From positions 1 through 53,100 of the IMG/VR virus record IMGVR_UViG_3300027985_001356: a stretch of DNA of 53,100 nucleotides; one strand, 5' to 3'. Positions 405-35,378 of the stretch are shown in pieces. The notes under the pieces were generated by a model that saw only the letters and a program-made list of their open reading frames with translations, was not told where the DNA came from and searched no databases. The translations under genes were made by a program, and so were the position numbers. The stretch's first letter is position 1. The number at the start of each line of letters is the position of its first letter. Source of the DNA: a virus (Duplodnaviria; Caudoviricetes).

Positions 405-844
405 GATACCACTGGTACTACTTTCCCGGATACCTCTGGGCTTTGCCCGCAACCATTGTTGGGCTCCTGTTGGTTCTCATCTACCGGCCTAAGGTATGGC
501 GCTGGTCCGACGGATGTCTCGAGGCAATCACAAACAAGCCCATGATAGGCAAGCCTGCAGCGCAAACGCACGGATGGCTGATCTATTACCGTGACGACGT
601 GGTTCGGAGTAATCCCGGCCTGCGTGTCCATGAGCGGATTCACGTTCTGCAAGGATTTGTAGGCGGCCCTCTCTTCATGCTGGCCTATGTTCTCCACTTT
701 CTATGGCTATTTGCCATGACAGGATTCGGGGATTGGAAAACAGCCTACATGCGCATTTGGGCTGAGAGACAAGCCTTTCGTGCACAGCGGGAATTCAATT
801 CCGGGTTACGGCCTGGGGCCTGGGGAGGCCAGAGGACACGCTAA
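401..844 (+). CDS. Membrane protein with HExxH zincin-like motif
   Basis: Two hydrophobic segments; VHERIHVLQ followed by distal E (WAERQA). Confidence 0.75.
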   Translation: MRYHWYYFPGYLWALPATIVGLLLVLIYRPKVWRWSDGCLEAITNKPMIGKPAAQTHGWLIYYRDDVVRSNPGLRVHERIHVLQGFVGGPLFMLAYVLHFLWLFAMTGFGDWKTAYMRIWAERQAFRAQREFNSGLRPGAWGGQRTR

Positions 845-1018
845 ATCATAGAGCATTGCCATCTGCTCCAAGAATACATCCTTGGGAACCGCAGTTTGTG
901 CAGAGATCCTTACGAGCTCTGCAGCTAATGCCGGGATGACATAGTCCGGAGATCTGCGTTCGATCGCCTGTTTGATTGCGGAGGATGCTAGCTCGACTCC
1001 TGTTGGCAAGATACTCAT
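806..1018 (-). CDS. Hypothetical protein
   Basis: TAATG coupling to upstream plug gene. Confidence 0.6.
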   Translation of the reverse strand: MSILPTGVELASSAIKQAIERRSPDYVIPALAAELVRISAQTAVPKDVFLEQMAMLYDLACPLASPGPRP

Positions 1019-2115
1019 TAGTATTTCACCAGCCCAGGATACAAAAACTTAATCCAGTCTAGCACTTGCTGGTGTTCTGCGGATGCGTCGGTAATATATG
1101 TATCGGTTACGAAAATCTGTTTGACGTTCCCTTCGAGTTCTTGAAAGGAACCAATGCGGCCTACCTCGTTCCAGTTATGGGCGCCTGGCGCCCATGCTGT
1201 CGAGAACGTATTTTCAGCGTTGCCATCTACCGCGACAGTTAATGTGTTTGCGACGTCGTTGGCACTAAACCTTAGGAGGGTCCATCCCAAGACGGCAGAT
1301 CCTCCGATCTGGTTCCAGACTCCGGAAAAAATCCCTGGCCTTTGGTTTCCACCAGGGGAGGCGTGCGGAAAGAATCCTATGTTCCCCGTGTCGCTCCAAA
1401 AGAGGTTTTTGATCCCGGTATTGTTCGGGATCTCCATAAAGATATACGCGGTGGTATTTGCACCTATCCCTTTGGCGCTGGTGAACTGTAGGGCGTCCGT
1501 TTCGGCGGGGTCGTAAAATACAGTAGCGGTGCCATCAACATCCGGATCGACATACTTAGGATCTAGAGCCGTGGGGACGCCGTTGGTCAAATCGTTATTG
1601 CTGGGGCTCCTGTCTTCCCAATCGGTGACTCGCCCAGATAAGACTGTGGTACCAAAACTGGCATCAAACCATGCTGTTAGATTGAGCCCGAATATGGCGG
1701 ACGGATCACCTGGCGGAGGAAGCGGGGCTCCCAGGGTGGCTCTCACCGAGGTATTTGCTTGCTGTACTACTATAGATGCCTTTAGGGCGGCGATCTCAGC
1801 AGCATCTACGTAATTTAACAGGACGTCGACACCAAGCTGATTAAGTGTCGGGGGCTCAGTAACAACCCCTTGGTTGATGCTGATGATATTGCCGGCGGGA
1901 CGTGATGCCTCTTGCCACAACCTTAACAGCGACCATTCCGTTACGACCCTGATACCTGCGCGCAGAATCGTGTCATCAGTATCGAGGACTGTCATGTACC
2001 ATGAGTTATCTCGATCGTTGTAACGAAACTCGAGTTTGAACTCGACGCCGTCCAATTCTACTTCAAAATCGTAAAACGGAACATCTATCGTAAGAGGTAG
2101 CCTGTCAATTGCCAT
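1018..2115 (-). CDS. Baseplate plug-like protein (Pam3 gp18-like N-terminus) fused to LamG/ConA-like domain
   Basis: N-term FEVELDGVEFKLEFRYNDRDNSWYMTV...GIRVV; Pro linker; C-term LTAWFDAS...RVTDWEDRS...YPGL; start at ATG 2115 (MAIDRL). Confidence 0.75.
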   Translation of the reverse strand: MAIDRLPLTIDVPFYDFEVELDGVEFKLEFRYNDRDNSWYMTVLDTDDTILRAGIRVVTEWSLLRLWQEASRPAGNIISINQGVVTEPPTLNQLGVDVLLNYVDAAEIAALKASIVVQQANTSVRATLGAPLPPPGDPSAIFGLNLTAWFDASFGTTVLSGRVTDWEDRSPSNNDLTNGVPTALDPKYVDPDVDGTATVFYDPAETDALQFTSAKGIGANTTAYIFMEIPNNTGIKNLFWSDTGNIGFFPHASPGGNQRPGIFSGVWNQIGGSAVLGWTLLRFSANDVANTLTVAVDGNAENTFSTAWAPGAHNWNEVGRIGSFQELEGNVKQIFVTDTYITDASAEHQQVLDWIKFLYPGLVKY

Positions 2116-2128
2116 ATATAGGCCTAAG

Positions 2129-2157
2129 AGCTTACACTTCGTCGAATCAGACAGCAA
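2129..2157 (-). promoter_or_regulatory. Putative sigma70-type promoter for plug-LamG gene
   Basis: TTGCTG-N17-TAAGCT on minus strand, 13 nt before ATG. Confidence 0.4.
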
Positions 2158-2163
2158 GAGAGA

Positions 2164-2235
2164 GGGGCAGGGCAGCAAAAAGGTATGAGCATAATCCGAC
2201 AGAATTGAACAGATTAAAGATTGCTGCTCCGCCCC
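2164..2235. terminator. Long GC-rich inverted repeat separating early operon from plug gene
   Basis: ggggcagggcagcaa / ttgctgctccgcccc, 13 of 15 Watson-Crick; no clear U tract. Confidence 0.4.
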
Positions 2236-2239
2236 CCCT

Positions 2240-2683
2240 TCATTCGATTGAATCGATGGAAAGATCGTCCATAAAGCCGTCGTAGACCATTTTGCCTAGT
2301 CCAAATATTCTAACCCATAGAAGGCATTCGCGCTCAGACGGGCTAAACTTGCTGTAGAGATTAATTCTCGATCCATCCCTCATTCGAGGAGATAGTATAT
2401 ACACGTACTCCTGAGAATCCCCACCAGCACCCAATGGTGGCTCTAGGTATATTCTCCCAGGCTCTGTTTTGAAACGAGCTACAAGGCTTGCGGCGCAACA
2501 TCTTGGCCCATTCCATATGTTCTTGTTGTCAGCCGCTGTCATGCCATTTGCGAAATATTTACCTCTCGCCCAGGCGCGAAGCTCCTTGCCATGGCCTGAT
2601 GGATACCCATCGTACTGTCGATATAGTGCGCAAATATTCTCTCCATCAAGGTCTTTAACGATAGTCAAACTTCTTGTTCCCAT
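2240..2683 (-). CDS. Conserved phage hypothetical protein (MGTRS...YxxxDGYP type)
   Basis: MGTRS, YRQYDGYPSGHG, EYVY motifs; AGGAG SD. Confidence 0.8.
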   Translation of the reverse strand: MGTRSLTIVKDLDGENICALYRQYDGYPSGHGKELRAWARGKYFANGMTAADNKNIWNGPRCCAASLVARFKTEPGRIYLEPPLGAGGDSQEYVYILSPRMRDGSRINLYSKFSPSERECLLWVRIFGLGKMVYDGFMDDLSIDSIE

Positions 2684-2766
2684 TTTGGCTCCTAATATCC
2701 TGCAACTTCTGGTACGATCTTTTGGCCATTCTGTCTCCTCTGGGCCAGGGGGGGGAGTGCTGGGAT

Positions 2767-3195
2767 TTACCCTCTGGCCCTAAGGTCTATCGGTACTCCA
2801 TCCCGCTGCAGATGCGTATCAATCGCATTCTCAAAAGCATCCGAGAACATCCGGCGGACCTTCTTGACCGCCTGCGGTGCATGGATCGGCAGATGCCATA
2901 TCGTGGCGATATCAACGCTAACGACGCTGTCGATATGAAGTTTAAGCCCAACATGAGCCTTTGCCTCGTTGTGCCAAGAGCAAATCGCCCATTCAAACCT
3001 CACCCAGTCTGGCATGGAAAATTCCCCGAGGAATTGTTCTAGCTCTCCCTCTGTGCGGATTTCATCGTTCGAAAGCATGATGCTTCTGACCACACCATCG
3101 GATTCTCGTTGAGCGATTTTTCCGTCCGCTCCGAAGTGATGGAGCTTTACGGTGTTGCGGAATCTGGAGACTATGTGTTTATTTGCTTGGGCCAT
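2767..3195 (-). CDS. Hypothetical protein
   Basis: 142-aa ORF, AGGAGAGG SD. Confidence 0.7.
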   Translation of the reverse strand: MAQANKHIVSRFRNTVKLHHFGADGKIAQRESDGVVRSIMLSNDEIRTEGELEQFLGEFSMPDWVRFEWAICSWHNEAKAHVGLKLHIDSVVSVDIATIWHLPIHAPQAVKKVRRMFSDAFENAIDTHLQRDGVPIDLRARG

Positions 3196-3225
3196 CCGGC
3201 CTCTCCTTTCTGGGTTGCTTATCTC

Positions 3226-3495
3226 TTAATAATCATTTGCCAATCGGTCCAAATGCTCTCGGAGCAAGTCCTGTTGCTCGATGTCGATCTTGTCTACCAG
3301 GAGATTGACATATCGTGACATAGCCCTAACCAGGGCGACAGTGTCGCTATGATAGTGTTCGGAGAATTCAGCGATGCTGCTAGCACAGTGGTAACAAACG
3401 TTACACACGGATAGTCCGCTTCGGATAGGAGAGACCGTGAGAGTATCGCTGTCACAGAACCCGCATTTCCTTTTTTCTTTGTTCGCTTGAGCCAT
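3226..3495 (-). CDS. Zn-ribbon hypothetical protein
   Basis: CGFC...CYHC; coupled to upstream gene. Confidence 0.7.
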   Translation of the reverse strand: MAQANKEKRKCGFCDSDTLTVSPIRSGLSVCNVCYHCASSIAEFSEHYHSDTVALVRAMSRYVNLLVDKIDIEQQDLLREHLDRLANDY

Positions 3496-3908
3496 CAGGA
3501 CACCTCCACATGAAGACCTACCCCAGGAGTGACAATCAAGTATGCGTCACTGCCCCGAATTATTCTCATCCAAGTTTCATAGTCTGCAGTGAAATTAGCA
3601 AATGTACTTGCTTTGTTTTCGACAAGCCATTTTGCTAACAACTCAGGCGTTTGACAAACTGGGGATATGGGCGTTCCTTCAGTGCATGTTTCATACATCT
3701 GCCAATGCGTGGCCTCTCCCTCGGGCCACTTAGGCATATAGTCCTCAGGGACTGGCTTTTTCGGCCAATCGTCTGGATTTTCTATCCAATCTTGGACATC
3801 GCCGTCAAACCATTCTGCACAATACAACGGTCTCTTGTGTCCATCCTCGTTCTTTGGATGCGTCCATGTTGGCGGTACTCTTCGAGCTTCTCTTCCCATA
3901 AGGTTCAC
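3495..3908 (-). CDS. Conserved phage hypothetical protein
   Basis: GREARRVP...WQMYETCTEGTPISPV...LAKWL pattern common in phage early regions. Confidence 0.8.
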   Translation of the reverse strand: MNLMGREARRVPPTWTHPKNEDGHKRPLYCAEWFDGDVQDWIENPDDWPKKPVPEDYMPKWPEGEATHWQMYETCTEGTPISPVCQTPELLAKWLVENKASTFANFTADYETWMRIIRGSDAYLIVTPGVGLHVEVS

Positions 3909-3920
3909 GCTCCCCCTTCT

Positions 3921-4085
3921 CTAGTCATCATCAACATCCGTTTGCAGGTGCAATACCTTCTCATCGTCATCTCTTCTAACAATTCTCATTCCGAGTAACA
4001 CGCCTGTTCCGTATTCTCCTTCGACACGGATCTCGATATCGGGCGCGAGGCACTTGAGTATCTTTCGAAGTTGCCCAACATTCAT
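3921..4085 (-). CDS. Small hypothetical protein
   Basis: MNVGQLRKILKCL..DIEI typical small phage protein start. Confidence 0.65.
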   Translation of the reverse strand: MNVGQLRKILKCLAPDIEIRVEGEYGTGVLLGMRIVRRDDDEKVLHLQTDVDDD

Positions 4086-4162
4086 GGGTTCTCTTTTTAG
4101 GCATGGGGAGACCATGCTACAGCCAAAACCTAAGGGGAGTCGGTTCTCTGCCCTGCGTGGCA

Positions 4163-4501
4163 TCAGAAACTCACGTCCATCGCTCGCAGGAGATTTTCTA
4201 TACGCTCGAGAACCCTGACCTTATCCGGCAGATCAGCACTTGCATCCCATTGATCTAGGTATTTCTTTATTTTAGGTATGTTCGAGAATTCTCGTGCTTT
4301 GACTAAGGCTTGATGACGCCGAAGTCTTTCTTCGTCGAGCTCATCTTGGCGATCCCATATGGCATCTAGCTCGCATTCTTCGATGCCAAGACATTCGCCC
4401 GGCCAGAGTTCGATTATCAGGGACTTGCGTTCCTCGGCTTTGGCATGACTTGAGAACGCTCCCCGTACTCGTTCGTAATCGGAGAGTATATAAATTTTCA
4501 T
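4163..4501 (-). CDS. Hypothetical protein
   Basis: MKIYIL...GAFSS..KAE...IEECELD pattern. Confidence 0.7.
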   Translation of the reverse strand: MKIYILSDYERVRGAFSSHAKAEERKSLIIELWPGECLGIEECELDAIWDRQDELDEERLRRHQALVKAREFSNIPKIKKYLDQWDASADLPDKVRVLERIENLLRAMDVSF

Positions 4502-4504
4502 CTC

Positions 4505-4750
4505 TTAGAGCCCCCTTTCAAAATCGTCCCATGCCTCTTTTAGGGATTCATCCACAACTTCGGATGCCTCATCTGCGAGTGCGTCGTATCGCGCCCGCTC
4601 GCCAGGGCGGATATCATCTCGACTCTGCAGAGCTGCCAGGGCGCCAGCCTCAAAGGCCTCAGCGAACATAGCTCGCAGTGACAAGGTCAAGTCTGCTCTT
4701 TGCTGCCCAATCAAGTTTGTGAGCTTGTCGAGTTGCTTGATCAGTATCAT
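4505..4750 (-). CDS. Hypothetical protein
   Basis: ATGA-coupled in leftward operon. Confidence 0.65.
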   Translation of the reverse strand: MILIKQLDKLTNLIGQQRADLTLSLRAMFAEAFEAGALAALQSRDDIRPGERARYDALADEASEVVDESLKEAWDDFERGL

Positions 4751-4908
4751 CTTCTTTCTCTCCTCTTTTCCGAGTGCAACTCTCTGATCGTGAGCTCGAC
4801 CCAGTCCGCGGCAGTCGCGGCGCTTTCAGATGCCTTCTTGACAGGAGTGCACGTGGCGAACTGCCTAAGCTGGGCTGCCACCCGTTTGAGTTCATCGCCT
4901 GGAGTCAT
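4747..4908 (-). CDS. Small hypothetical protein
   Basis: MTPGDELKRV...; ATGA overlaps at both ends. Confidence 0.6.
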   Translation of the reverse strand: MTPGDELKRVAAQLRQFATCTPVKKASESAATAADWVELTIRELHSEKRRERR

Positions 4909-5333
4909 GATCGCTTCTCCGTTGTTAGGTCTTTTAGTACGAGCTTGTGCTGGATCGCATGTGCGGTCTCTCTCAGCATTCCCGCAGAGACCTTTGATCC
5001 ACACAGCCATAACTCATCACACATCTCCAATACCCGCAGCCCTCTCTGTATCTGCTGCTCACGCTCGGCCACGTTGCCGTCATCCCAGTTCTCACAGGAG
5101 AGAATCCATGGGGCCACAAATGTGTGCTTGGGGTGCTCTTCCTCTAGCTTTCGGATGACACTCCGAGCTTTTGCGAGGTTTGCTGTCACGTCACCAGATA
5201 CGGGATGGGCCACAAAAACGATGGGGTTGATGGTCCTGCTCCTCTTGGTCGGATAAACATGCCCGCAGAGCGGACATGGACCACCATACTCCTCGAGCCC
5301 CATCTTGAGCTTAATCATCGGGTCCATCGGCAT
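4905..5333 (-). CDS. DUF4406/DUF7768-like (nucleoside deoxyribosyltransferase-like fold) protein with N-terminal CPLCG
   Basis: VFVAHPVSGD...N...FVAPW...CDELWLCG..SAGMxxE pattern; start uncertain. Confidence 0.7.
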   Translation of the reverse strand: MPMDPMIKLKMGLEEYGGPCPLCGHVYPTKRSRTINPIVFVAHPVSGDVTANLAKARSVIRKLEEEHPKHTFVAPWILSCENWDDGNVAEREQQIQRGLRVLEMCDELWLCGSKVSAGMLRETAHAIQHKLVLKDLTTEKRS

Positions 5334-5449
5334 GCGTATACGTATACGTGACCAGTAAGTCGCTGGGAAGAGCAAAACGAATGCTGTTCTGTTTTATTTG
5401 TAAACTAGCCAGGATTTCAAGGGGTTATTGTGCCAAGAAAAATCCGTCA

Positions 5450-5478
5450 TTGACCCGGAGTATACGTATCGCTATACT
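5450..5478 (+). promoter_or_regulatory. Sigma70-type promoter, probably leaderless transcript
   Basis: TTGACC-N17-TATACT, 6 nt before ATG 5485. Confidence 0.65.
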
Positions 5479-5484
5479 TCAATC

Positions 5485-5667
5485 ATGCACACGAACCCGT
5501 TCGATTTACTGCTAAAGGCCAAGCAACGCGAACAATACGGAGATTGTCACCTCCGCTGTCAACGCCCCTGTATGCGTCCGCATGTCGATAAGGACCAAGG
5601 GTTGGGATGGTTTGGATCTTGGCTTTTTGGGGCTTACTGCTGGCTATGCCGGAAGGGTGTACTCTAG
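5485..5667 (+). CDS. Small Cys-rich hypothetical protein
   Basis: ATG directly after promoter. Confidence 0.5.
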   Translation: MHTNPFDLLLKAKQREQYGDCHLRCQRPCMRPHVDKDQGLGWFGSWLFGAYCWLCRKGVL

Positions 5668-5703
5668 AGATAGTCTAGGGATTAGTGTACACTCCGGCTC
5701 CTG

Positions 5704-5892
5704 ATGGCTAAGAAGAAGACTACGATCCAGATCGCGCGCCCCAGGCAAATGAACCTTAGGCTTGCCGAGCATGAATATAGTTTGATTCAGGGCGCAGTTC
5801 TTCGTTCGCAGCGAAGTCAAAGTGAATGGGCGCGCGATATGCTGCTAGCTGCCGCCGGGGTATGCCCTGGTTGTCATCAAGAAGTCGAATGA
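5704..5892 (+). CDS. Ribbon-helix-helix DNA-binding protein
   Basis: RQMNLRL strand then EHEYSLIQGAV..SQSEWARDMLL helices. Confidence 0.75.
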   Translation: MAKKKTTIQIARPRQMNLRLAEHEYSLIQGAVLRSQRSQSEWARDMLLAAAGVCPGCHQEVE

Positions 5893-6107
5893 TAAGTATG
5901 GGACCCATCGAAATATCCTGCCCTTTCTGTTTGGCGCCTGCAGGAACCCCCTGTTTTATCGTAGCCAAACAGTCCCATTGTGCGGGTGAAATCCTCACTC
6001 ACCGTGTGCGTGAACTCAAAGCCATGAAACAGGAGAATATTTATGGGAATGAAATCACGAAAAGGCCTACCCACTCTAACCCAACAAGTCGTAATGGTTC
6101 AGGGTGA
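5889..6107 (+). CDS. Phage zinc-finger protein
   Basis: CPFCLAPAGTPC...HRVR; ATGA-coupled. Confidence 0.65.
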   Translation: MISMGPIEISCPFCLAPAGTPCFIVAKQSHCAGEILTHRVRELKAMKQENIYGNEITKRPTHSNPTSRNGSG

Positions 6108-6237
6108 CGGAAAAGCGGACGGCAAGGACGAGGTCGTTTTTGCCTACGATCCAGTAGGCGTTAGGGATTCTAAGGACAGCCTGGATATTGCAAGGTTTAG
6201 AATAATCACCAGGCAAAAAAACAATGTATCCAAATAA
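6043..6237 (+). CDS. Small hypothetical protein
   Basis: AGGAG SD; fills operon. Confidence 0.55.
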   Translation: MGMKSRKGLPTLTQQVVMVQGDGKADGKDEVVFAYDPVGVRDSKDSLDIARFRIITRQKNNVSK

Positions 6238-6811
6238 GATATCCCCATCCAAATACGTCCCCATCCTCCATCTCTATCAAGCTGCAGCGTTGGAGGTCTG
6301 CATGACAACCCAGCCATGGACTTGTTGCTTGCAAGCGACGCGCGTTGCGATCGACGTTCTTGACGCCTTTGGTCTGACAGTCACTCCGCAGCCTGTTTAC
6401 TGCTACGTGTTCAACAGATCTGCATGGAGATGGGAAACATCCGGCTCTAGCAGTAAGAGGCCTGATGACGCGTACACCTCCGGGACAGATCCAAGCAAAT
6501 GCCCAGAGGGGGCATGGCCCGCGTACTTGATTGGGATCCACGAAGAGGCCATCATTGACGGAGCGATGAATCAATTTGGAGACGACAAGAAAGGTCTCTA
6601 TGTCGATGACGTATCAGTTTTCCCTTTCGAGCAAAACGACTGGCCTGCCTGTATCATTAACTCAAAAGGGACGGTGACATTTTATATTAAGGCAGAAAAT
6701 TCTCCATCCTTCGAAGATCTTCCAGGATTTCAGAGGACTGAGGCTAGTCAAGCTCTGGCGAGGCGAGTTCTTCATACCATGAAGGAGATAAAGGAACGTC
6801 TCATCATATGA
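6224..6811 (+). CDS. Hypothetical protein, possible transglutaminase/papain-like fold
   Basis: CLQATRVAIDVL..FG...WPAYLIG...IIDGAMNQF. Confidence 0.6.
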   Translation: MYPNKISPSKYVPILHLYQAAALEVCMTTQPWTCCLQATRVAIDVLDAFGLTVTPQPVYCYVFNRSAWRWETSGSSSKRPDDAYTSGTDPSKCPEGAWPAYLIGIHEEAIIDGAMNQFGDDKKGLYVDDVSVFPFEQNDWPACIINSKGTVTFYIKAENSPSFEDLPGFQRTEASQALARRVLHTMKEIKERLII

Positions 6812-6820
6812 GAGATGTTT

Positions 6821-7201
6821 TTAATCCTCAGGTTTGATTCCCTCGAGCGTCTCGCGCATCCACCGGATATAATCCTCAGCCTTCCTCGCCTCTTTGGCCG
6901 GGTCATCTTTCTCGCCCATCCGGTACAGGTATTTGATCGCAGTTAAGCGGCAGTATGCCGCAAACTCTTGTGGCGTGCTGATGGCTCGCATAACGTCGAT
7001 ACATTCGATGCCTCCACGGATGTAATGATCGACGGGGGGTCTGCTGTATTTGGGATCATCGATCTTGTTCACATAGACCTCGTCCTCACCCTGTTTGCAA
7101 GGGCATCGCGTAAAAGTCTCAGCGAGTTCGGCGCAGTTTTTACACCTCGCGAGTGAGGAGGCTGCATTTACCTTGATGGGGCCCAGCTCCTCCGCCGTCA
7201 T
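6821..7201 (-). CDS. DUF3310 (T7 gp1.7-like) family protein
   Basis: HYIRGGIECID...AIKYLYRMGEK...KAEDY. Confidence 0.85.
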   Translation of the reverse strand: MTAEELGPIKVNAASSLARCKNCAELAETFTRCPCKQGEDEVYVNKIDDPKYSRPPVDHYIRGGIECIDVMRAISTPQEFAAYCRLTAIKYLYRMGEKDDPAKEARKAEDYIRWMRETLEGIKPED

Positions 7202-7626
7202 TTTGGCCTAACCTTTCTCCATTGTACTTTTGTCTCCGCTGAGACCCGCTGCAACGACTGCCATCCCCTGCCTCCGCTCAAGCGCACCATCGCGCTACCG
7301 TCTTTGTTCGCCCACGAGATTGTCGCTTTATAGCGATCGTCATCCTTTGTGTAGATCCAAACCTCGTCACCACCAAGGCAGTTTGCTACAGTCCCTACCC
7401 ATCCGACTTCGGCTCTTTTCCCTTCGGGCTTAGTTCTTCTATCAACCCAGAGCGCCCCCAATCTCTCCGCCTCGTCATCTGTTATAATAGTCACAGGGTG
7501 CTCCACAGTAGCGGGCCTGGGTGTAGATCTGATTGATTCTCGATGCCGACAGATTAAACCGTTCAGCAATCTCTCGCCTTGGCTTGCCCGCGGCAATTTC
7601 CTCGACGATCTTTCTGTCCCTTTCAA
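7198..7626 (-). CDS. Hypothetical protein
   Basis: ORF in leftward operon, ATGA overlap; start uncertain. Confidence 0.55.
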   Translation of the reverse strand: MKGTERSSRKLPRASQGERLLNGLICRHRESIRSTPRPATVEHPVTIITDDEAERLGALWVDRRTKPEGKRAEVGWVGTVANCLGGDEVWIYTKDDDRYKATISWANKDGSAMVRLSGGRGWQSLQRVSAETKVQWRKVRPK

Positions 7627-7641
7627 TGATGGATTCTCGTC

Positions 7642-8106
7642 TCATAATTTCCATACCTCAACAACGACCCCAGGCTCAGGGCCTCGACCCTCTGTATCCT
7701 GCTTGGCCGGTGTATACTCATATTGCTTCACAGCCTCTATGCGAATCAATTGGCTGTCGTCCTCCCACACGTCGGCATCGGTCAAACTATCCTCACATGC
7801 GCGGACAAGTTTGGACAAATCTGGCTTCGTGATTTTTCCCTCTGGATACATTGAGCGACGATGGCCATTTTTGCGCAAATGAGAGCCTGGGATCGGAAAC
7901 GTAAACACGAACGAAGCACCAAGAGGCCCCACGAGCATCGTGAGCCCTTCTTTTTGCATAGCATTCTTCGCCACCATCGTGACTGATTTGCGCCAGGCTG
8001 CATGGCCTTTGGTGGTCTCGTAAAGTTTATGGCGCCTGGGGTCATAGCGATGATTTCCCTGGGAAACGGGGCAGCCGGGCACAGAGAATCGTAAAACTGT
8101 TTTCAT
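7642..8106 (-). CDS. rusA: RusA-like Holliday junction resolvase
   Basis: FSVPGCPVSQG...KPDLSKLVRACEDSL...WEDDSQL. Confidence 0.9.
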   Translation of the reverse strand: MKTVLRFSVPGCPVSQGNHRYDPRRHKLYETTKGHAAWRKSVTMVAKNAMQKEGLTMLVGPLGASFVFTFPIPGSHLRKNGHRRSMYPEGKITKPDLSKLVRACEDSLTDADVWEDDSQLIRIEAVKQYEYTPAKQDTEGRGPEPGVVVEVWKL

Positions 8107-8360
8107 AGCAACCCTGCCAAAACAAAACCCATGACAACCCCGACTACAATATATCCTTTCGAAACACCCTCGGTGGATAATAACTGTCTCGTCCCGTTCC
8201 AGCATGCCCACTCGCTTAATTGCGCTCGTGTCATCCTCCAATGCTTGTTCGGATCAGGGCGCCATCCCCTATCTTTTGTTTTCCACGTGACCGGATTGAA
8301 TTTCGGCCGCAAGACAGTGGGCATAGACGCGGGTGTCAACAGCTTGAGGCTTGGTTGCAT
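8103..8360 (-). CDS. Small protein with C-terminal TM helix
   Basis: YIVVGVVMGFVLAGLL; AAGGAAGG SD. Confidence 0.6.
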   Translation of the reverse strand: MQPSLKLLTPASMPTVLRPKFNPVTWKTKDRGWRPDPNKHWRMTRAQLSEWACWNGTRQLLSTEGVSKGYIVVGVVMGFVLAGLL

Positions 8361-8377
8361 AAGATGTTCCTTCCTTA

Positions 8378-9034
8378 TCAGCTTGTCCGCAGGATGACGC
8401 AATCTGTCGGTGGTGTTGCTGGTTCTACGTTGGTCCAAAATACTGCGCTATTGCCTGGGCATTCAGCAGGCTCTCCGTGTTTCCGTTCCTTGGTTTTCAA
8501 CTTGCCTTTGCGCTTGCCTGTCTGGTGGTACTTCGCTGGGATTGTCTCGCCTCCCCAAATAAATGAGATCCGATCTCTAGGCCAAATTAGCCAGCCTGGA
8601 AGGTGTCCGGGATGAGGCCTCAGGTGGCGGATTGATTCGATGTTGAATTGACACCATACAAAACGCATTCGACCTGCATGACGCTCTTGTTCGGCAAGAT
8701 ACTTCGCCCACCACCTCCTCCCCGATCCTCGCGAACCTGGATGATTGCAATACGTCACAGTCTCCCAACAGCTCTCTAAACCGCACAATCTCTCGGGTGT
8801 CCAATCAGTCGGACAGGGATCATAAACCCCATCAATGGGTGAACCAAGCGTCCTAGCAACCCAGTCCATCCACTCAGGCGGGGTCCACCAATCCGCAGAA
8901 TAATTCTGGTGACGGATGCTGATGTTTTCGGGGCCGGTTTTCTTTGTCATGAGTTTTTGCATCTTTCCGGGCAACCGCATCCGCTTTCTCAAGGACTCCG
9001 TATCCAACGGCACCTTTCTCATCTCGACCATCAC
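8378..9034 (-). CDS. Phage Dam-like DNA N6-adenine methyltransferase homologue with atypical motif IV
   Basis: DWWTPP, YDPC, GL..W..YCNHPG, RISF; NPPY replaced by NHPG. Confidence 0.7.
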   Translation of the reverse strand: MMVEMRKVPLDTESLRKRMRLPGKMQKLMTKKTGPENISIRHQNYSADWWTPPEWMDWVARTLGSPIDGVYDPCPTDWTPERLCGLESCWETVTYCNHPGSRGSGRRWWAKYLAEQERHAGRMRFVWCQFNIESIRHLRPHPGHLPGWLIWPRDRISFIWGGETIPAKYHQTGKRKGKLKTKERKHGEPAECPGNSAVFWTNVEPATPPTDCVILRTS

Positions 9035-9702
9035 CCGCCCCTCCTATCGACATCGACAACAGATCTCCAGTTGGCCGATTCGCGAATCCTGGACAAGATG
9101 CGATGTCCATAGCGCTTACTGAACTCATCGGCATGCAGGTTCGTGGTTATAACTGTGCGCGCTTTCCTTCCTGCACAGAAATCAAATAACTCATCCAACC
9201 CAGAGATAAGCATCCCCTTTTTGTCCGCATACTCTGTCCCTAAATCATCCACGATAAGAGAGCTGGAGTTCTTCCATCTGCGTCGAAAGTCTTTATCGAA
9301 AGCCCCTGCGCCAAAAAATTCCGTCGCCCTCATAAAAAATGGAGACTTCCCCCCATGATCTCCTTGCCATCTCAAAGCTGCGAAAGTCTTCCCTGTCCCA
9401 GTTCCACCCGACAGGATTCTGATCTGTCTCTTGTCTTCCATGAACCCTTCCATCTGTTTCATGGCTTCACTGTTTGGATCGAAGGAATCCTCGTACACTC
9501 GCTCGCTGAGGAGGTCTGGCGCGTTTCCCTCTTGGAGGATGGTCGCACGCATCTCGTGTTCCCTTCTTGCCTGCTTTCGCGCTAACGCATCTCGCTGCGC
9601 TTGAACTTCCGCATCTCTAGCCTCCCACTCCTCATCTGTGAGTTGGGGGACAAGAACAGCTGGAAATAGCTGCTCCACACTGTCCGAAATAGGCTTACTC
9701 AT
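9031..9702 (-). CDS. DnaC/IstB-like AAA+ helicase loader
   Basis: Walker A GGTGTGKT, Walker B LIVDDLG, ITTN, RILSRI. Confidence 0.9.
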   Translation of the reverse strand: MSKPISDSVEQLFPAVLVPQLTDEEWEARDAEVQAQRDALARKQARREHEMRATILQEGNAPDLLSERVYEDSFDPNSEAMKQMEGFMEDKRQIRILSGGTGTGKTFAALRWQGDHGGKSPFFMRATEFFGAGAFDKDFRRRWKNSSSLIVDDLGTEYADKKGMLISGLDELFDFCAGRKARTVITTNLHADEFSKRYGHRILSRIRESANWRSVVDVDRRGG

Positions 9703-10562
9703 AGCTTTACCTCTCCTCGCGGGTAAGAGTCGTGCGGATGCGGTTCTACTCGGCCAAACCGTACGTCATCATCCGCAGTCCTTTTGCCTTTGCGCTGCGA
9801 GATAGATATCTGGTCCCAGTTCCTGCGGAGACCTGTCGGAGATGAAATCACCCCTGACCAGAAGGTGTCCTCCAAGGCCCACGCGATCATATCCTCTATT
9901 GCTTCCCAGGAATGCTTATCTTGCTCATGCGCAATCCGGAGTTCGTCCGCCCACTTCAGCTCCCGCTTCGCACGCACAGCTGGCGCAAGCTTCGCCAGCT
10001 TGCCACCAGGAGCATTCGCGACAACCATGTCAGCAAGCTTCTTCGACAACCGGTGCGCATTGGCTGAGATTTTCGCGGGATCAAGAGATTTCTTTGGTTC
10101 CAACGTAGCATTATCACTTTGGTTACTGCCCGTAGTCTCCGTTTTGTTCCCGTCTGTTCCTTCGTTCCCGGAACGTTCGGAACCGTTCCCGTTTGTTTCG
10201 TTTTTATTTCTTTCTCTCCACTTACGTGTCCTCGGGGTACTCAGGTCGGAGAGGCGGTCCCATGATTTATCCCACCCAACGATTTCAATACCTTTGGGTG
10301 CGTGCGCGATCAGCCCAGCAAGTTGCGCTTTAGCGAGCCCCTCGGACATCAAGCGCTCACCTATGTCGCTCGCCTCGGTCAACAGCGTATAGCGGGCTAG
10401 GTACCTAGCGGACGACAGCTCATGAGGAACGAGCCCTGCGCAATTATGCGCCTTATTCAGCAACAGCAGATGCAGATAGGCTGTCGTTCCCCAGAATCCC
10501 GCGGCATCACATCTGGGGTCCTTTGGTAAGAACGCATTAATTTTTGCCCAACACGCGATCAT
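9699..10562 (-). CDS. Replication initiator (lambda O-like organisation)
   Basis: Directly upstream of DnaC-like gene; RTRKWRER then low-complexity linker; C-term DTFWSGVISSP.GLRRNWDQ. Confidence 0.8.
   Translation of the reverse strand: MIACWAKINAFLPKDPRCDAAGFWGTTAYLHLLLLNKAHNCAGLVPHELSSARYLARYTLLTEASDIGERLMSEGLAKAQLAGLIAHAPKGIEIVGWDKSWDRLSDLSTPRTRKWRERNKNETNGNGSERSGNEGTDGNKTETTGSNQSDNATLEPKKSLDPAKISANAHRLSKKLADMVVANAPGGKLAKLAPAVRAKRELKWADELRIAHEQDKHSWEAIEDMIAWALEDTFWSGVISSPTGLRRNWDQISISQRKGKRTADDDVRFGRVEPHPHDSYPRGEVKL
10135..10220. other. Putative replication origin inside initiator gene
   Basis: Clustered GTTC(C)/GGAAC repeats then T-rich tract. Confidence 0.55.
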
Positions 10563-10804
10563 CTGGCCTCCCATGCCTTTTTCGTAAATGGGACTTTGCC
10601 TTTTGTCAGCTCAGCGATGGCCCAGCCTATTTTGATCCCAGGCCGAAAATCCCCAGTCGCGAGCGCATAGACCGTGGAGAGGCTGCATCCTAAGGCCTCG
10701 GCCACCTGAGCAGGGCTTTTGCTATGCTCCTGCATCCAGTTTCCAAAAGAAGTTTGCCAACTTCCCTCGCGGGGGTTGTAGCCTCTACGGTTTGATTTTT
10801 TCAT
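10559..10804 (-). CDS. Cro-like helix-turn-helix regulator
   Basis: SPAQVAEALGCSLSTVYALATG..RPG...IAELTKGKV. Confidence 0.85.
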   Translation of the reverse strand: MKKSNRRGYNPREGSWQTSFGNWMQEHSKSPAQVAEALGCSLSTVYALATGDFRPGIKIGWAIAELTKGKVPFTKKAWEAR

Positions 10805-10829
10805 CCTGCCCCCCCTTACTCACAAATCC

Positions 10830-10858
10830 CTGTATCACTGGAAATACAGTGCAGTCAA
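10830..10858 (-). promoter_or_regulatory. Putative operator/promoter upstream of Cro-like gene
   Basis: Overlapping inverted repeats ctgtat..atacag and cactg..cagtg next to a minus-strand TTGACT. Confidence 0.45.
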
Positions 10859-10946
10859 GAGTGGTTACAGGTAACAAAATATACTCAGTATAATTAAAAG
10901 GAAGTAGTCCTAACGATGTTCCACGTGCAACCAGAGCGCCTTGTTG

Positions 10947-11225
10947 TCAGAACGGCAAGTCATCAGTACTGGGGGGCACATCTGCTTTTTTCTCTGATGA
11001 AGGCTGAGAAGCCGACATCCCGGGGCAAGTTCCAAAATGGCAGTTATATCGGTCGCCCTCAGGTGAGTTTGGATAGGCCTTGTGCGCGATTGGGATGCCA
11101 TCTCCGAGATCTAGCCAGCAATCTCCATCCACTTTGGGGTCCTCATCCATTGCCATCCACTTATTATTTTTTGATTTTGCCCAGAAGATGGGCGCGGAGC
11201 ACTTGTTGCATGTTTTGATTTCCAT
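10947..11225 (-). CDS. Zn-binding small protein with SSB-like DDLPF C-terminus
   Basis: CNKC...HFGTC; disordered tail ending STDDLPF. Confidence 0.8.
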   Translation of the reverse strand: MEIKTCNKCSAPIFWAKSKNNKWMAMDEDPKVDGDCWLDLGDGIPIAHKAYPNSPEGDRYNCHFGTCPGMSASQPSSEKKADVPPSTDDLPF

Positions 11226-11344
11226 CAGATTCCTCTCTGTGGTTCACAAAGTAGCATTATTACTTGACTCCTCCGATATCGACAGTGCCTTTGATGGTGA
11301 ACCACGACCAACGCACTGGGATGGAGATGTTTACGTCTAAGCAT
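11225..11344 (-). CDS. 39-aa peptide (not in ORF track)
   Basis: MLRRKHLH...QRGI; overlaps upstream stop and TGATG-coupled downstream. Confidence 0.4.
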   Translation of the reverse strand: MLRRKHLHPSALVVVHHQRHCRYRRSQVIMLLCEPQRGI

Positions 11345-12299
11345 CTTTCACCTCCCCTGTCTCCGGATCGTGCCCAGGCTCCTTGTCCTTCTTGAGCTTA
11401 TCCTTGACGGCCTTAGTGCCTTTCGCGACGGGCTCAGATGGCGCCTTATCCTGATTCTTATGCTCAATCGTGGCCTGCCAGCTGGTCTCACCATCGCGGA
11501 TGGTCGTGTAGATTTGACGTAATTCTACAAGTTCACTGGGTGTAACCTTGCCCAAATCATGACCCAGGTACTCGGAGAGGTCCGCGGGGTTGATGTTTAA
11601 CTCTGCGAAGGCGTCCGCCAGGCGCCGCCTCTCGGCATCTGGGTCCTTAGCGGCCTGGTTACTGGCGGTCTTGCGAATCGCCTCCTCTGCTTCGTCTTGG
11701 AGCCACCCAGGGATCAGCCTGAGGCCATTGGTCCGGATTGCTTTAGAGACCAGCGCCCCCTGTTTGTTGAGAAGTTCATCGTCTGAGGCTCGGATGATGT
11801 AGACGGTTTGGCCATGGCTGCCTTTTCTCGTGCCCACGAGGTGTTGGCCCTGGCGGTGACTGTTTCGTTCTACGGTCTTTTGCACAGTGATTTGCGTCGT
11901 GTGGCTGGCGTTTCGCTGGTAGTCGGTGACTGTGACGGCGACGATCCGCTTTTCGTCATCGTCATAGACTGTGGTCTGGGACGATTTGATGTTTCCCATG
12001 ATCTGGATCGCTTGCTCGACGAACCGAATGGACAGGCCTTCGATGCCTTGCCCAATGGGCTTGCGATAGCGCGCGACTTTGGCGAAGGCTGGGCGTTTGC
12101 ATTCCCTGAGGAGCTCTGTGCGGACCTGGTCGAGGTTGCGCGGATTCTGCATGGCCATGAGGTAGCTGGCCTCTTCGGCCGCCTTAACGTGGGCTGCGAC
12201 GGCTGTGGCCGCGGTCTCGTGCATGGTGGTGATCTGCGAACCCTGAAATCCGTCTTGTTTGACGAGTGATACGGGTAGTGTTGAGTCGCTATTGTCCAT
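11337..12299 (-). CDS. Putative single-strand annealing recombinase
   Basis: Follows YqaJ nuclease; PRN..ECKRPAFA..Y.KP..IEGLSIRF core; DPETGEV tail typical of phage SSAPs. Confidence 0.7.
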   Translation of the reverse strand: MDNSDSTLPVSLVKQDGFQGSQITTMHETAATAVAAHVKAAEEASYLMAMQNPRNLDQVRTELLRECKRPAFAKVARYRKPIGQGIEGLSIRFVEQAIQIMGNIKSSQTTVYDDDEKRIVAVTVTDYQRNASHTTQITVQKTVERNSHRQGQHLVGTRKGSHGQTVYIIRASDDELLNKQGALVSKAIRTNGLRLIPGWLQDEAEEAIRKTASNQAAKDPDAERRRLADAFAELNINPADLSEYLGHDLGKVTPSELVELRQIYTTIRDGETSWQATIEHKNQDKAPSEPVAKGTKAVKDKLKKDKEPGHDPETGEVKDA

Positions 12300-12480
12300 T
12301 CTTCATTCTCCGTTTAGTTCGTTCGAAAAGGTGATCATCCGTCTCCATCCATAAACCTTGCCACTTGTTCCAGGCGCAATGGTCGTTAGGCGCCTGTGCA
12401 GGTGGCGGGTCTCCGCCGTAGATTTCTCTGCATATTTTAGATTCTTCAAACTCTTTAAAAGGGTCTATCATTTTCCCCAA
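12289..12480 (-). CDS. Small hypothetical protein
   Basis: Overlap-coupled, AGGAG SD. Confidence 0.55.
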   Translation of the reverse strand: MGKMIDPFKEFEESKICREIYGGDPPPAQAPNDHCAWNKWQGLWMETDDHLFERTKRRMKNGQ

Positions 12481-13544: not shown

Positions 13545-13629
13545 CTATCCCTCCTGTTAGGTTTCACAAACGATTTCCATGCGGTGTGTTGGCCCGCAAC
13601 GATCACACTGGCAATAGAAACCTTCAAAG

Positions 13630-14182: not shown

Positions 14183-14186
14183 CGCA

Positions 14187-16879: not shown

Positions 16880-16893
16880 AAAAGGCCTATAAT
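16866..16893 (+). promoter_or_regulatory. Promoter for packaging/late operon
   Basis: TTGAAG-N16-TATAAT, 8 nt before ATG 16902, no SD. Confidence 0.55.
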
Positions 16894-16901
16894 TATTTGA
16901 C

Positions 16902-32322: not shown

Positions 32323-33846
32323 ATGGCACTGCGCGAACTGCTATTAAAGCTTGGTATAGATGTTGATAAGGGTGGTGTAAGAAACGCCGATGCCGCGCTC
32401 GGCAGCCTCAAAAAGGCCGCGGTTGCAGCAGGTGCTGCTTTTGTAGCATTCAAAGCGATCAGTGCCATCAAGGGTGTTGTTGACGATGTTCGCGCGATGG
32501 GCGACGAGATCGATAAGACCTCTCGCCAAATAGGGATTGGCGCCGAAGCCCTGCAGGAATTGCGATTTGCTGGTGGCCTTGCCGGTGCAAGCAGTGCCGA
32601 AGTCTCCACCTCCCTCAAGAAGCTTCAGAAGAACGCCTTTGAAGCAGCCCGTGGCACCAAGACCATGGTCGATGACTTCGCCAAGCTTGGCATTAACGTC
32701 AAGGATGCCAATGGGAACCTGAAGTCTGGCGAGCAGCTGATCAACGAAGTTGCAGACGGTATGCAGGGGCTCAGCAATGATACGGAGCGTGCTGCATTAG
32801 CTCAGACTGTCATGGGTCGCGCCGGGGCTAAGCTGGTACCCCTTCTCGTCCAAGGTTCTGAGGGAATCAATAAGATGCGTCTTGAGGCGCGCGAGCTCGG
32901 CGGCGTGATGGATCAGGAGCTCATTGATGCCACAGCAAAGCTTACCGATGACCAGGCCAGGCTAGGGCAGGCTTGGCAGGGGCTCAAGAATGGAATTGCC
33001 AAAGAGGTAATCCCCATCTTTCTGAAGGTTGTCAATGCGATGATCAAGATCGCAAAGGTAATTCGTGGCCCCGTCATCGCTGCCATAAGTGTGATTTCCA
33101 ATATCGTCGGTGGATTTATTGAGGCGATGGAGTTTCTCAATGAGAAATTCGGAGGGTTAGGTACTGTAATTGGCATCGTCACGACAGGGTTGGGTGCTCT
33201 TGGTGCTGCGATGCTCTTGTTTGGTCGTAAGGCTGTGTTTGCAGCGATACGTGTGGCAGCAGCATGGGCGTTGGCAAATCTCCCATTAGTCTTGATGATT
33301 GGCATCATTGGACTGATCTTGCTGATCATTGACGACGTCGTTACGTTTTTTCGTGGTGGTGACTCGCTGATAGGCAGGTTTATCGACAAGATAAGAGGCT
33401 GGGTCAAGGAGGTTGGGGGATTCACCAACTTTGTAAGCGAGCTGTTTAGGAAGTTTTTGACAAAGGTCCTTGGATTCTCGGATGCAACGGCCACCAAGAT
33501 TACAGACGTATTCGAAGTGGTTGTGGAAACAATATCCGACATTATCAGCTCCGTCGGAAAGGCTATAGGTCTTGTACAGGAGTTACTTGGTCTCACGGAT
33601 GATAACGAGGGGCGCGTAGGCGCCGTATCAAGACAGAGAGAATTACGTCGTAGGCGCGCATTCAATGCTGCCGCGGCCACAAGGCAAACGACGCAGAATC
33701 AATCAAATAATACTTCGATCAACGTGAGTGTTGATGCTCGAGGGCAAACGAACCCAGCGGCGATCGCAAATACTGTCTCCAATAAAATATCACGCGCCCA
33801 ATCAAACCGGCAGTCTGCCCAACCCTTTGCTACGGCCCCAAGATAA
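32323..33846 (+). CDS. Tape measure protein
   Basis: 507 aa, helical Ala/Gly-rich, hydrophobic segments. Confidence 0.9.
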   Translation: MALRELLLKLGIDVDKGGVRNADAALGSLKKAAVAAGAAFVAFKAISAIKGVVDDVRAMGDEIDKTSRQIGIGAEALQELRFAGGLAGASSAEVSTSLKKLQKNAFEAARGTKTMVDDFAKLGINVKDANGNLKSGEQLINEVADGMQGLSNDTERAALAQTVMGRAGAKLVPLLVQGSEGINKMRLEARELGGVMDQELIDATAKLTDDQARLGQAWQGLKNGIAKEVIPIFLKVVNAMIKIAKVIRGPVIAAISVISNIVGGFIEAMEFLNEKFGGLGTVIGIVTTGLGALGAAMLLFGRKAVFAAIRVAAAWALANLPLVLMIGIIGLILLIIDDVVTFFRGGDSLIGRFIDKIRGWVKEVGGFTNFVSELFRKFLTKVLGFSDATATKITDVFEVVVETISDIISSVGKAIGLVQELLGLTDDNEGRVGAVSRQRELRRRRAFNAAAATRQTTQNQSNNTSINVSVDARGQTNPAAIANTVSNKISRAQSNRQSAQPFATAPR

Positions 33847-34472
33847 TGGCGACTTTCGTAGATAGAATTAATAACCAAAGGCGGCGTGTTATTGTGAGCT
33901 GGGAAGACAACCCTAGCCAGGTTGTCGAATTCGACGCGGTCACAAGAGAAGGTCATAGTAACCCCGCCGGAACAACAGATCATCCAGTTGAAGGGGGCGT
34001 TGATTTCACAGATCATTATCGTCGTCTTCAAGATGAGCTGACGATATCCGGCGTCGTTACCGACACTCCTATCGTTGTGGATGCATCGACCAATGCAGGA
34101 GCGCCAAATACTGGGGGAGATACGAAAGAGAGGGCCATTAGCGCTTACAATTTCCTCCTTCAAACTCGAGATCAGGCAAAGCTCGTCACAGTGATGACGT
34201 CATTGCGGGAATACCGCAATATGGTGATCACGCAACTCAATGTTTCAAGGGACGCTGAAACATCAAGGATATTGCAAGCCGAGATTAGCTTTCGGGAAAT
34301 CATCATCGCAGTAACCGAGCAAGTCGAGGCCCCCACCCCTGCTGTAACTGCCGCTCCTGCACGAAACAAAAAGCGCCCACAAGGGAAGCGCACTAAGCAA
34401 GCGGAGACTGAGGCAAACAAAGAAAAGAGCAGCAAAAGTGTCCTAGCTGGCCTTGCCGATAGCATCTTTTAA
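33846..34472 (+). CDS. Tail tube initiator / Dit-like baseplate protein
   Basis: FDAV..E.H...TDHPVEGG..TDH, LTISGVV, YRNMVI. Confidence 0.85.
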   Translation: MATFVDRINNQRRRVIVSWEDNPSQVVEFDAVTREGHSNPAGTTDHPVEGGVDFTDHYRRLQDELTISGVVTDTPIVVDASTNAGAPNTGGDTKERAISAYNFLLQTRDQAKLVTVMTSLREYRNMVITQLNVSRDAETSRILQAEISFREIIIAVTEQVEAPTPAVTAAPARNKKRPQGKRTKQAETEANKEKSSKSVLAGLADSIF

Positions 34473-34490
34473 GCGACGAAAGAGGGGGTT

Positions 34491-35378
34491 TTGGCCGATA
34501 AAGTTTTCAAGCGAGATGTAGTTATCACAGTAGGCACTCTTCGCATTGCCTCGAGGTTGCTGGATACGACTCGCGAACAGTTAGGGATATCCACCGAGGA
34601 GATCACCAATATCCTCAAGGCAGAATTCAACATTACCAAGACGCTCAAAAAGGAGCCTAATAAGTGTGAGCTGTCTATCTACAATCTGAAAAAGTCGAGC
34701 CGAATCGCGTTCCAGGCGCGAAAGCAACAGGTTGTTGTTGAGGCCGGTTATCTCGATAATACATCCCAGTTGTTCTCGGGAACACTCGAATATGCCTCGA
34801 GTGTCCATGATGGCCTCGACTGGATTACGACGCTACAAGCCTCAGATGGCACGAAGCAGATGAAGTCTGCCCGTATCAACACTTCGATCAAAGGGCCTGC
34901 GAAAGTCAAAGACGTCCTTAGCACGGCTGCTGCTGCGATGGGGTTGAATCCAGGGAACCTTGCCCGCACGGTGGCAAAAGGTGCCCTGCGTGGGAATCTT
35001 ACAGAGTTTACCAATGGGATTGTCCTGTCTGGCAAAGCTGAGAAAGTATTGGGCGGTATAGCTGAGTCGATGGGTTACTCGTTCTCCGTTCAGGACGGCC
35101 AGCTAATATTCCTCGGCAAGAACGACTCCCTGGGAACCACGGTTCCTGTCATATCACCGTCTACGGGGATGGTAGGCTCCCCGGAGCCAGGAGAGGACGG
35201 CTTTATCAATGTGCGAACGATGATCCAGCCAAATCTTTTGCCAGGTCATAGGATCCGGATAGAATCAGCCTCGGTGCAGGGGTTCTATCGAATAGAACAA
35301 ACTGATTTCTCAGGAGATACCTGGGGGCAAAACTGGTATGCAGATCTAGAATGTCGCCCGCTAGGAGGCGCTTCGTGA
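34491..35378 (+). CDS. Baseplate hub protein
   Basis: FNITKT..PNKC..IYNL, EAGY, SVQDG, TGMVGSP, GDTWG..W. Confidence 0.85.
   Translation: MADKVFKRDVVITVGTLRIASRLLDTTREQLGISTEEITNILKAEFNITKTLKKEPNKCELSIYNLKKSSRIAFQARKQQVVVEAGYLDNTSQLFSGTLEYASSVHDGLDWITTLQASDGTKQMKSARINTSIKGPAKVKDVLSTAAAAMGLNPGNLARTVAKGALRGNLTEFTNGIVLSGKAEKVLGGIAESMGYSFSVQDGQLIFLGKNDSLGTTVPVISPSTGMVGSPEPGEDGFINVRTMIQPNLLPGHRIRIESASVQGFYRIEQTDFSGDTWGQNWYADLECRPLGGAS

Follow-up and report, generated by a model that had tools for sequence, protein, structure and literature searches.

A plug domain and a lectin-like domain in one reading frame

Close to the left end of the window, by which we mean the whole 53,100-base stretch analysed here (a phage of the Caudoviricetes, IMG/VR record IMGVR_UViG_3300027985_001356, present as a whole record with a completeness estimate of 100%), a minus-strand gene encodes a single protein in which an immunoglobulin-like (Ig-like) baseplate plug domain is followed by a predicted helix, a proline-rich hinge and a lectin-like jelly roll of the ConA/LamG type (table 1). 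The reading frame itself (1018..2178, minus strand) is open for 386 residues; the ATG at 2115 agrees both with the start of the same gene in a related 51.5-kb viral record (G001) and with the N-termini of free plugs, and it yields a protein of 365 residues. According to the Pam3 and phi92 papers, each virion has six plug copies, which lie with the wedge on one side and the hub or tube initiator on the other, and tube initiator, plug and hub are gp17-18-19 in Pam3 and gp135-136-137 in phi92; the Bas63 paper describes the spacer of that phage as Ig-like with a short C-terminal helix as a cap.

The first-pass annotation of this DNA had proposed a plug-like N-terminus, to be compared with Pam3 gp18, and both profile and structure comparisons bear this out. 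Residues 4-104 align with positions 2-100 of the 101 positions of PF22479 (Pam3_gp18; E 7e-17, 62.2 bits against a cut-off of 24.2), and the same domain matches phrog_349 at 3e-16. An AlphaFold2 model of the fusion protein (46 aligned sequences; mean pLDDT 71, plug 84-95) superimposes on Pam3 gp18 (7yfz_h) with a Z score of 14.2 and an rmsd of 1.8 Å over 105 of 106 residues (Foldseek TM 0.80), and its plug domain is likewise close to the Bas63 spacer (Z 13.9) and a PhiTE chain (Z 12.8; Foldseek TM 0.78-0.80). The modelled strands span residues 14-103 and a helix begins at residue 105, which is the two-sheet Ig-like sandwich with C-terminal helix of the family, and the protein keeps every column that is invariant (4) or nearly invariant (12) among 20 aligned free plugs. 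Judged by profile and model alike, residues 1-104 form a full-length Pam3_gp18 plug domain. Indeed, Pam3 gp18 (PDB 7yfz), phi92 gp136, the Bas63 gp19 spacer and the PhiTE, XM1 and Pa193 chains share both the hidden Markov model family and the Ig-like fold with the plug of the window (Z scores of 14.2, 13.9, 12.8, 10.4 and 9.8 for the Pam3, Bas63, PhiTE, XM1 and Pa193 chains), and the window encodes the same set of partners as Pam3-type baseplates (tape measure, Dit-like tube initiator, hub, spike, gp25-like and gp6-like proteins). The differences lie in size and place: Pam3-type plugs are free proteins of 106-139 residues, and a small single domain of ~100-140 residues is the usual, albeit not formal, feature of the family, whereas the window plug carries an added domain; and the Pam3 and phi92 plug genes lie between tube initiator and hub, whereas the fusion gene lies ~32 kb away on the other strand. 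The tube initiator is the expected docking partner of the plug, according to the Pam3 paper, and a complex prediction of two tube initiators with plug residues 1-130, with alignments for each, returned a score of 0.01 (mark 0.32), which weighs neither way on binding.

The slot that the plug would ordinarily occupy is vacant, with tube initiator and hub genes 18 bp apart and nothing in between. It had been suggested at first pass that the plug had left the tail cluster for the opposite strand among early genes, which is the layout that we find, and another late gene was considered as a possible source of the plug. A six-frame search of the window with PF22479 recovered the fusion gene (64.6 bits) and no other plug at E<=10, and among 222 open reading frames (ORFs) of at least 70 residues the fusion alone matches the plug profile (hmmsearch 8e-46, hhalign 100%; next best 4.7%). 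By these profile searches, the fusion gene encodes the sole plug of the genome.

The C-terminal part (~236 residues) of the modelled protein resembles ConA-type modules with Z scores of 12-13.8 over 150-205 residues, its structural neighbours being GH54 arabinofuranosidase, a cyanopodophage tailspike, the lectin module of the streptococcal pilin PilC, CBM40, AbnA domain 4 and pentraxins. Foldseek matches in pdb and BFVD comprise trans-sialidase lectin domains and viral proteins named "Concanavalin A-like lectin/glucanases superfamily", and matches in the ESM Atlas comprise clusters named Laminin_G_3 (TM 0.82-0.83). A profile link runs through P0055, a protein with a PF13385 domain (5e-12) that matches the query at 2.2e-14 and the C-domain alignment at an hhalign probability of 95.8% over 211 columns. 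The ConA/LamG-type jelly-roll fold is thus clear in the model, as the first-pass annotation had anticipated in describing a fusion to a LamG-like domain. The linker in that description, a PPPP stretch, stands as a proline-rich hinge, but its core is PLPPPG, with three consecutive prolines rather than four. Free proteins homologous to residues ~129-365 (P0003-P0007; 233-255 residues, 40-51% identity) align from the leader onwards and share both this leader and a C-terminal Y-P-x-L-V motif with the fusion; like free phage Laminin_G_3 (PF13385) proteins, they have the ConA-type fold and lack a plug domain. The C-domain is modular over large distances, occurring as these free proteins and once behind a different N-terminus (P0009, 360 residues). 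In the ESM Atlas, residues 130-365 also retrieve a bacterial cluster from Chloroflexota in which the Pvc16_N domain of contractile injection systems is fused with a Laminin_G_3 domain that shares this fold (TM 0.83), and this is another tail-machine part that bears such a domain.

Table 1. Positions in the window of the fusion gene, its parts and associated features
Feature	Position	Strand	Remarks
Plug-lectin fusion gene (P0001)	1018..2115	-	365 aa; same architecture in G001
Pam3_gp18-type Ig-like plug domain (aa 1-104)	1804..2115	-	PF22479; model; pLDDT 84-95
Predicted helix (aa 105-128)	1732..1803	-	Prolongs the short C-terminal cap helix of free plugs; free plugs end at ~aa 105-115
Pro-rich hinge GAPLPPPGDPS (aa 129-140)	1696..1731	-	Low pLDDT; homologous to the N-terminal leader of free C-domain proteins
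ConA/LamG-type jelly roll (aa 141-365)	1021..1695	-	Structure matches, profile link
Hairpin	2159..2241	-	In the 124-bp spacer upstream of the fusion gene; long, G+C-rich
70-aa ORF	806..1018	-	ATG overlaps the fusion gene stop (TAATG); no family match; G001 counterpart 42% over 74% of length
Tape measure	32323-33846	+
Dit-like tube initiator	33846..34472	+	PF21821 1.4e-32; 208 aa; expected docking partner of plug
Tube initiator-hub junction	34473..34490	.	18 bp; plug gene slot in relatives
Baseplate hub	34491..35378	+	PF22759 6e-13; phrog_196 1.5e-62
Spike	35351-36073	+

Descent and rarity of the relocated plug

The record G001 is collinear with the window over the whole genome and contains a single plug match, which lies inside a 365-residue fusion at the same place (P0002), and its Dit-hub gap is 5 bp. 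Between the two phages the plug is 61% identical, the helix and hinge (residues 105-140) 50% and the lectin part 83%, as compared with 90% for the capsid, 83% for the sheath, 72% for the hub, 59% for Dit and 55%, 51% and 46% for the fibre-like genes at 39752-40897, 44875-46053 and 46383-47738. The proportions of nonsynonymous and synonymous differences (pN/pS) are 0.23/0.89 in the plug and 0.11/0.80 in the lectin part. Because pS is saturated (0.82) and pN is low, the codon comparison places both parts of the fusion under purifying selection and indicates that the shared frame is no accident of assembly. An artefact (a chimeric assembly, a missed stop or a frameshift) has in its favour that two carriers are all that is known; we regard it as having an almost negligible probability, given two independently assembled and synonymously saturated records, an uninterrupted frame of 365 codons with no alignment gap, and a gene whose G+C content, 0.51, resembles the 0.52 of the whole genome.

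The nearest relatives of the tail module are also the owners of the nearest plugs. The five loci that come closest to the window in plug identity (L004-L008) also do so in tube, hub and Dit, and the canonical gene order is kept in each; in L004 the identities are 66% for the plug (local), 53% for Dit, 51% for the hub and 79% for the tube. In a quick maximum-likelihood tree of 81 plug rows (L022 left out because of its length, ORFs that ran too long trimmed to the final 112 residues, careful search incomplete), the window, G001, L004 and L005 group together (SH-aLRT 88) inside a seven-row clade (95). Since the nearest tail-module relatives hold the nearest plugs in canonical order and group with the fusion in the tree, the plug that moved was the lineage's own rather than one imported from afar. 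The alignment of free C-domain proteins from their leader onwards is consistent with an in-frame fusion of this plug gene to the beginning of a LamG-type gene that already existed.

Plug divergence also tracks that of the partners, with Spearman coefficients of 0.69 for the hub (n 65) and 0.35 for Dit (n 59). This co-divergence bears on a further explanation, namely that the fusion is an early, non-structural protein with a co-opted plug-like domain and that the baseplate either has no plug or has one that is unrecognizable. Such a protein would suit the location of the gene, which has early and accessory neighbours and lies on the other strand from the structural genes, and the phi92 paper notes that in some myophages a single protein (Mu gp34, Milano gp25) combines the functions of plug and tube initiator. 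Those proteins are like the fusion in holding the plug function within a multidomain protein, but their partner domain is a core part of the baseplate, whereas the window plug has a lectin-type addition and the tube initiator has kept a gene of its own. That tube initiator is of ordinary length (208 residues, compared with 169-263 in most plug-bearing loci), all 16 conserved plug positions are kept, no other ORF is plug-like by profile, and the one other unassigned late ORF that was modelled (168 residues) is helical; taken with the co-divergence, these points make a non-structural role very improbable.

The position of plug genes was surveyed in 80 viral loci collected with the plug alignment, with neighbours scored by phmmer. 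As the first-pass annotation had stated for phages of this kind, the order tube initiator-plug-hub is the rule: Dit directly precedes and the hub directly follows the plug in 67 of the 80 loci. Only the hub flank was found in 7 (the plug stands at the start of the locus in 3, and Dit went undetected by phmmer in 4) and only the Dit flank in 3 (a contig end, a 750-bp insertion between plug and hub, and a 366-residue ORF unrecognised by phmmer), and neither flank in 3 (L013, L014 and L016). Plugs in all 80 loci measure 77-151 residues and none is fused. In one locus, L009, the tail module is canonical except that two ORFs of 179 and 54 residues (L009:1544-2240) separate the plug from the hub.

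A wider HMMER search of 1.84 billion representatives returned 1,406 proteins at E<=0.001, of which the best 150 were examined. Among these 150 listed matches, 132 match the plug part only (nearly all of 104-130 residues), 18 match the C-domain only (most of them free proteins of 209-255 residues) and none matches both. Four of the 132 listed plug-type matches exceed 150 residues (P0018, 839; P0068, 260; P0102, 254; P0042, 153), from which it follows that the plug tolerates C-terminal additions; P0018, P0068 and P0102 have an N-terminal PF22479 plug and a C-terminal extra, as in the fusion, but the added parts are unlike the window C-domain (hhalign <=0.2%), and the loci of P0068 and P0018 were not found in viral_contigs. 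A word-based search identified one other protein with both parts, the G001 fusion (73% identity), and a word-based search for longer plug-domain proteins returned the query itself only, which is weak evidence. Searching phage records with the whole protein (tblastn) gave one distant plug match only, scanning viral_contigs with the C-domain (alignment A1) gave the known relative only, and searching for loci of free C-domain proteins (alignment A3) gave nothing in genome_contigs and one weak 2.4-kb contig in the metagenome set (L084). A limited literature search (baseplate, plug, tube initiator, LamG) found no description of a plug-lectin fusion or of a plug outside the tail module. The plug-lectin fusion is therefore rare, with two metagenomic genomes as its known carriers.

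The three loci with neither flank are near-identical fragments of a second lineage in which the plug has moved. In one of them, Dit (327 residues, PF21821) directly abuts the hub (PF22759; L091:994-2861), and a free plug of 113 residues (PF22479, 4e-22) follows a 412-residue ORF and a Peptidase_M15 gene (L014:3968-4902); its stop codon shares one base with the start codon of a 197-residue ORF (P0163). This plug forms a separate branch of the plug tree. Sequence searches of Pfam and PDB with P0163 gave no match, and in the ESM Atlas it falls with viral clusters of SPRY-domain proteins (features 0.98; structure TM 0.79-0.88). SPRY and Laminin_G_3 are both ConA-type jelly rolls and belong to the same Pfam clan. 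Homology of P0163 to the window C-domain was considered and rejected (hhalign 0.1%). The second lineage is thus like the window in that Dit abuts the hub and the plug lies outside the core tail module in physical linkage with a ConA-type jelly-roll gene, but unlike it in that plug and partner are two genes with a one-base overlap, on the strand of the tail genes after Peptidase_M15, and in that the SPRY-like partner has no detectable relationship to the C-domain. The plug has thus left its slot in two independent lineages, and in each it is linked to a ConA-type partner, as a neighbouring gene in one and as a fused domain in the other; as to function, this is a lead and not proof.

Genomic surroundings and expression signals

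The structural genes lie on the plus strand between ~14.7 and 49.8 kb, in the order terminase, portal, head proteins, neck, sheath (29706-31085), tube, chaperone and tape measure, followed by tube initiator, hub, spike, gp25-like and gp6-like wedge proteins, DUF2612, several fibre-like proteins and an M15 peptidase. The minus strand carries a block (806-14549) with RecE-like, DnaD/DnaC-like and RusA-like proteins, a kinase and many small genes without known function; the fusion gene stands at the far end of this replication and accessory block, on the strand opposite to all structural genes. The named phages nearest to the window are still distant, the sheath being 37% identical to those of Pseudomonas PAK_P1-type phages. 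An exact direct repeat of 144 bases lies at both ends of the genome (1-144 and 52957-53100). The assembly of G001 opens within ~1 kb of there (window ~52.4 kb for its first bases, ~52.3 kb for its last), and an end position shared by two independently assembled records may mean that these are true ends of the genome and not places at which a circle was cut arbitrarily.

Between the spike and gp25-like genes lies an Ala-rich gene of 168 residues (36070-36576, plus strand) with 10 homologues of 155-168 residues and no Pfam or PHROG match; in most relatives the gp25-like gene directly follows the spike without it. It was considered as a hidden plug and rejected, with an hhalign probability of 0.05% and a model (pLDDT 81) that is an all-helical bundle and not Ig-like.

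Around the fusion gene, the neighbours at 401-844, 806-1018 and 2767-3195 have counterparts in G001, as does the fusion gene itself, whereas most small ORFs at 2240-6574 (minus strand; 2767-3195 being the exception) have none; by this comparison, a hypervariable stretch of accessory genes separates the plug-lectin gene from the replication genes. The 70-residue ORF at 806..1018 may form part of the fusion gene unit, as suggested by the overlap of its start with the fusion gene stop. It converges, with a 39-base overlap, on a plus-strand ORF of 147 residues (401-844) that has hydrophobic stretches and the sequence HERIH, no family match and 63% identity to its G001 counterpart.

The first-pass annotation had also credited the fusion gene with its own hairpin and promoter, and hence with independent regulation. 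A hairpin is indeed present in the upstream spacer, but it is weak as a signal (-48.8 kcal/mol, z -2.07, matched by 8 of 200 shuffles) and is absent from G001, in which the spacer measures 46 bp; the upstream regions of the two phages barely align. The promoter did not materialize: two sigma-70-like sites were found in 600..2800, both on the plus strand and none on the strand of the gene (2.5 in shuffles), and scans for consensus promoters and terminators in the window and G001 gave none on that strand outside the coding region. A 9-mer comparison with other intergenic regions returned scattered matches only, and no Shine-Dalgarno sequence precedes the ATG, unlike many genes of the genome. With no promoter-like site, an unconserved hairpin and no Shine-Dalgarno sequence, independent regulation is not supported. 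Transcription entering from the early block may cover the gene, or it may have a promoter of an unrecognised type. The stretch AGGCCTATAT (window 2116-2135) abuts the ATG of the fusion gene, TGGTATAAT in G001 (L002:9985-10003) ends 8 bases before the ATG of its counterpart, and GGCCTATAAT (window 16880-16904) stands 9 bases before an ATG at 16902, all three without a Shine-Dalgarno sequence; these sites may be short-leader or leaderless starts, or chance. The timing of expression of the fusion gene is not readable from sequence and would have to be presumed.

A possible role of the lectin-like domain at the baseplate

We hypothesize that the fusion is the sole plug of this phage, its own gene having moved and been joined to a ConA/LamG-type gene, and that it displays lectin-like domains that most likely bind glycans; we consider this account, as a whole, probable. 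In the common ancestor of the window phage and G001, the plug gene would have left its slot between tube initiator and hub and been joined in frame to an otherwise free ConA/LamG-type gene, through the leader of that gene. The N-terminal Ig-like domain would act as Pam3 gp18, phi92 gp136 and the Bas63 spacer do, the ~24-residue helix and the proline-rich hinge would let the lectin-like domain reach beyond the cleft, and the baseplate would display up to six jelly-roll domains, which would bind a host surface polysaccharide or another glycan and so aid adsorption. Binding of a host glycan is the most likely role because the nearest structural neighbours bind carbohydrates. We infer the presence of the protein in the virion, its copy number, the exposure of the C-domain and its binding of sugars, and receptor binding by the C-domain would be a reading of its fold.

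Several points weigh against this account. The phage is known only from metagenome assembly, the presence of the protein in the virion is presumed, and a plug sits deep between hub and wedge, in a cleft that a domain of 236 residues would have to leave. It would be unusual for a late structural protein needed in stoichiometric amounts to be encoded at the end of a leftward replication and accessory block, by a gene with no recognizable promoter, Shine-Dalgarno sequence or terminator of its own. As to the domain itself, no Pfam family matches residues 130-365 or the free homologues P0003 and P0005 at E<=0.1, and residues 154-215, a third of the C-domain, are modelled with low confidence. Finally, its conservation between the two phages, which far exceeds that of the fibre-like genes (83% compared with 46-55%), is easier to reconcile with a structural role or a conserved ligand than with a determinant of host range.

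The earlier notion of a swappable receptor-binding module is likewise not supported as stated, since the C-domain is the most conserved part of the protein between its only two carriers. A serious rival, if an unlikely one in our estimation, accepts the fusion as a plug and takes the jelly roll for a structural or assembly adaptor that holds a fibre, a wedge or another phage protein, or for a general decoration, with no host binding. The C-domain is as conserved as the sheath, which is consistent with such an adaptor, as are the capacity of ConA-type folds to bind proteins (pentraxin, SPRY) and the several fibre-like genes that the phage already has; its best structural neighbours, on the other hand, are carbohydrate-binding (CBM40, sialidase lectin domains, AbnA domain 4, the PilC lectin module and the tailspike).

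If the fused domain is a glycan-binding lectin, as we favour, its attachment to the plug could serve a more specific role. In Pam3, E217 and phi92 the plug departs from the tail tip as the wedge opens, and a tethered lectin could for this reason turn glycan binding under the baseplate directly into unlocking. The plug would then be a general docking handle for ConA-type sensor domains, serving here as a trigger in which glycan binding leads to extraction of the plug and unlocking of the hub, bypassing the fibres. A ConA-type jelly roll accompanies the plug in both lineages that moved it, a hint of functional pairing rather than chance; we offer the whole idea as a long shot, with considerable doubt.

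The plug is a familiar part of such tails, and its relocated, fused form is a rare variant. The gene order of the baseplate core is very stable (kept on both sides of the plug in 67 of the 80 loci and on one side in 10 more), and only one other lineage breaks it. For annotation, this carries the warning that an "empty" junction between tube initiator and hub does not mean that the plug is missing. A moved, lectin-bearing plug implies that even an internal locking subunit can anchor a displayed binding domain, and offers a possible site for attaching foreign domains to a baseplate. Should the lectin part prove to bind the host, there would be six binding sites next to a baseplate component that has to separate before the tail can fire, and a link between receptor binding and triggering would be testable in a simple system.

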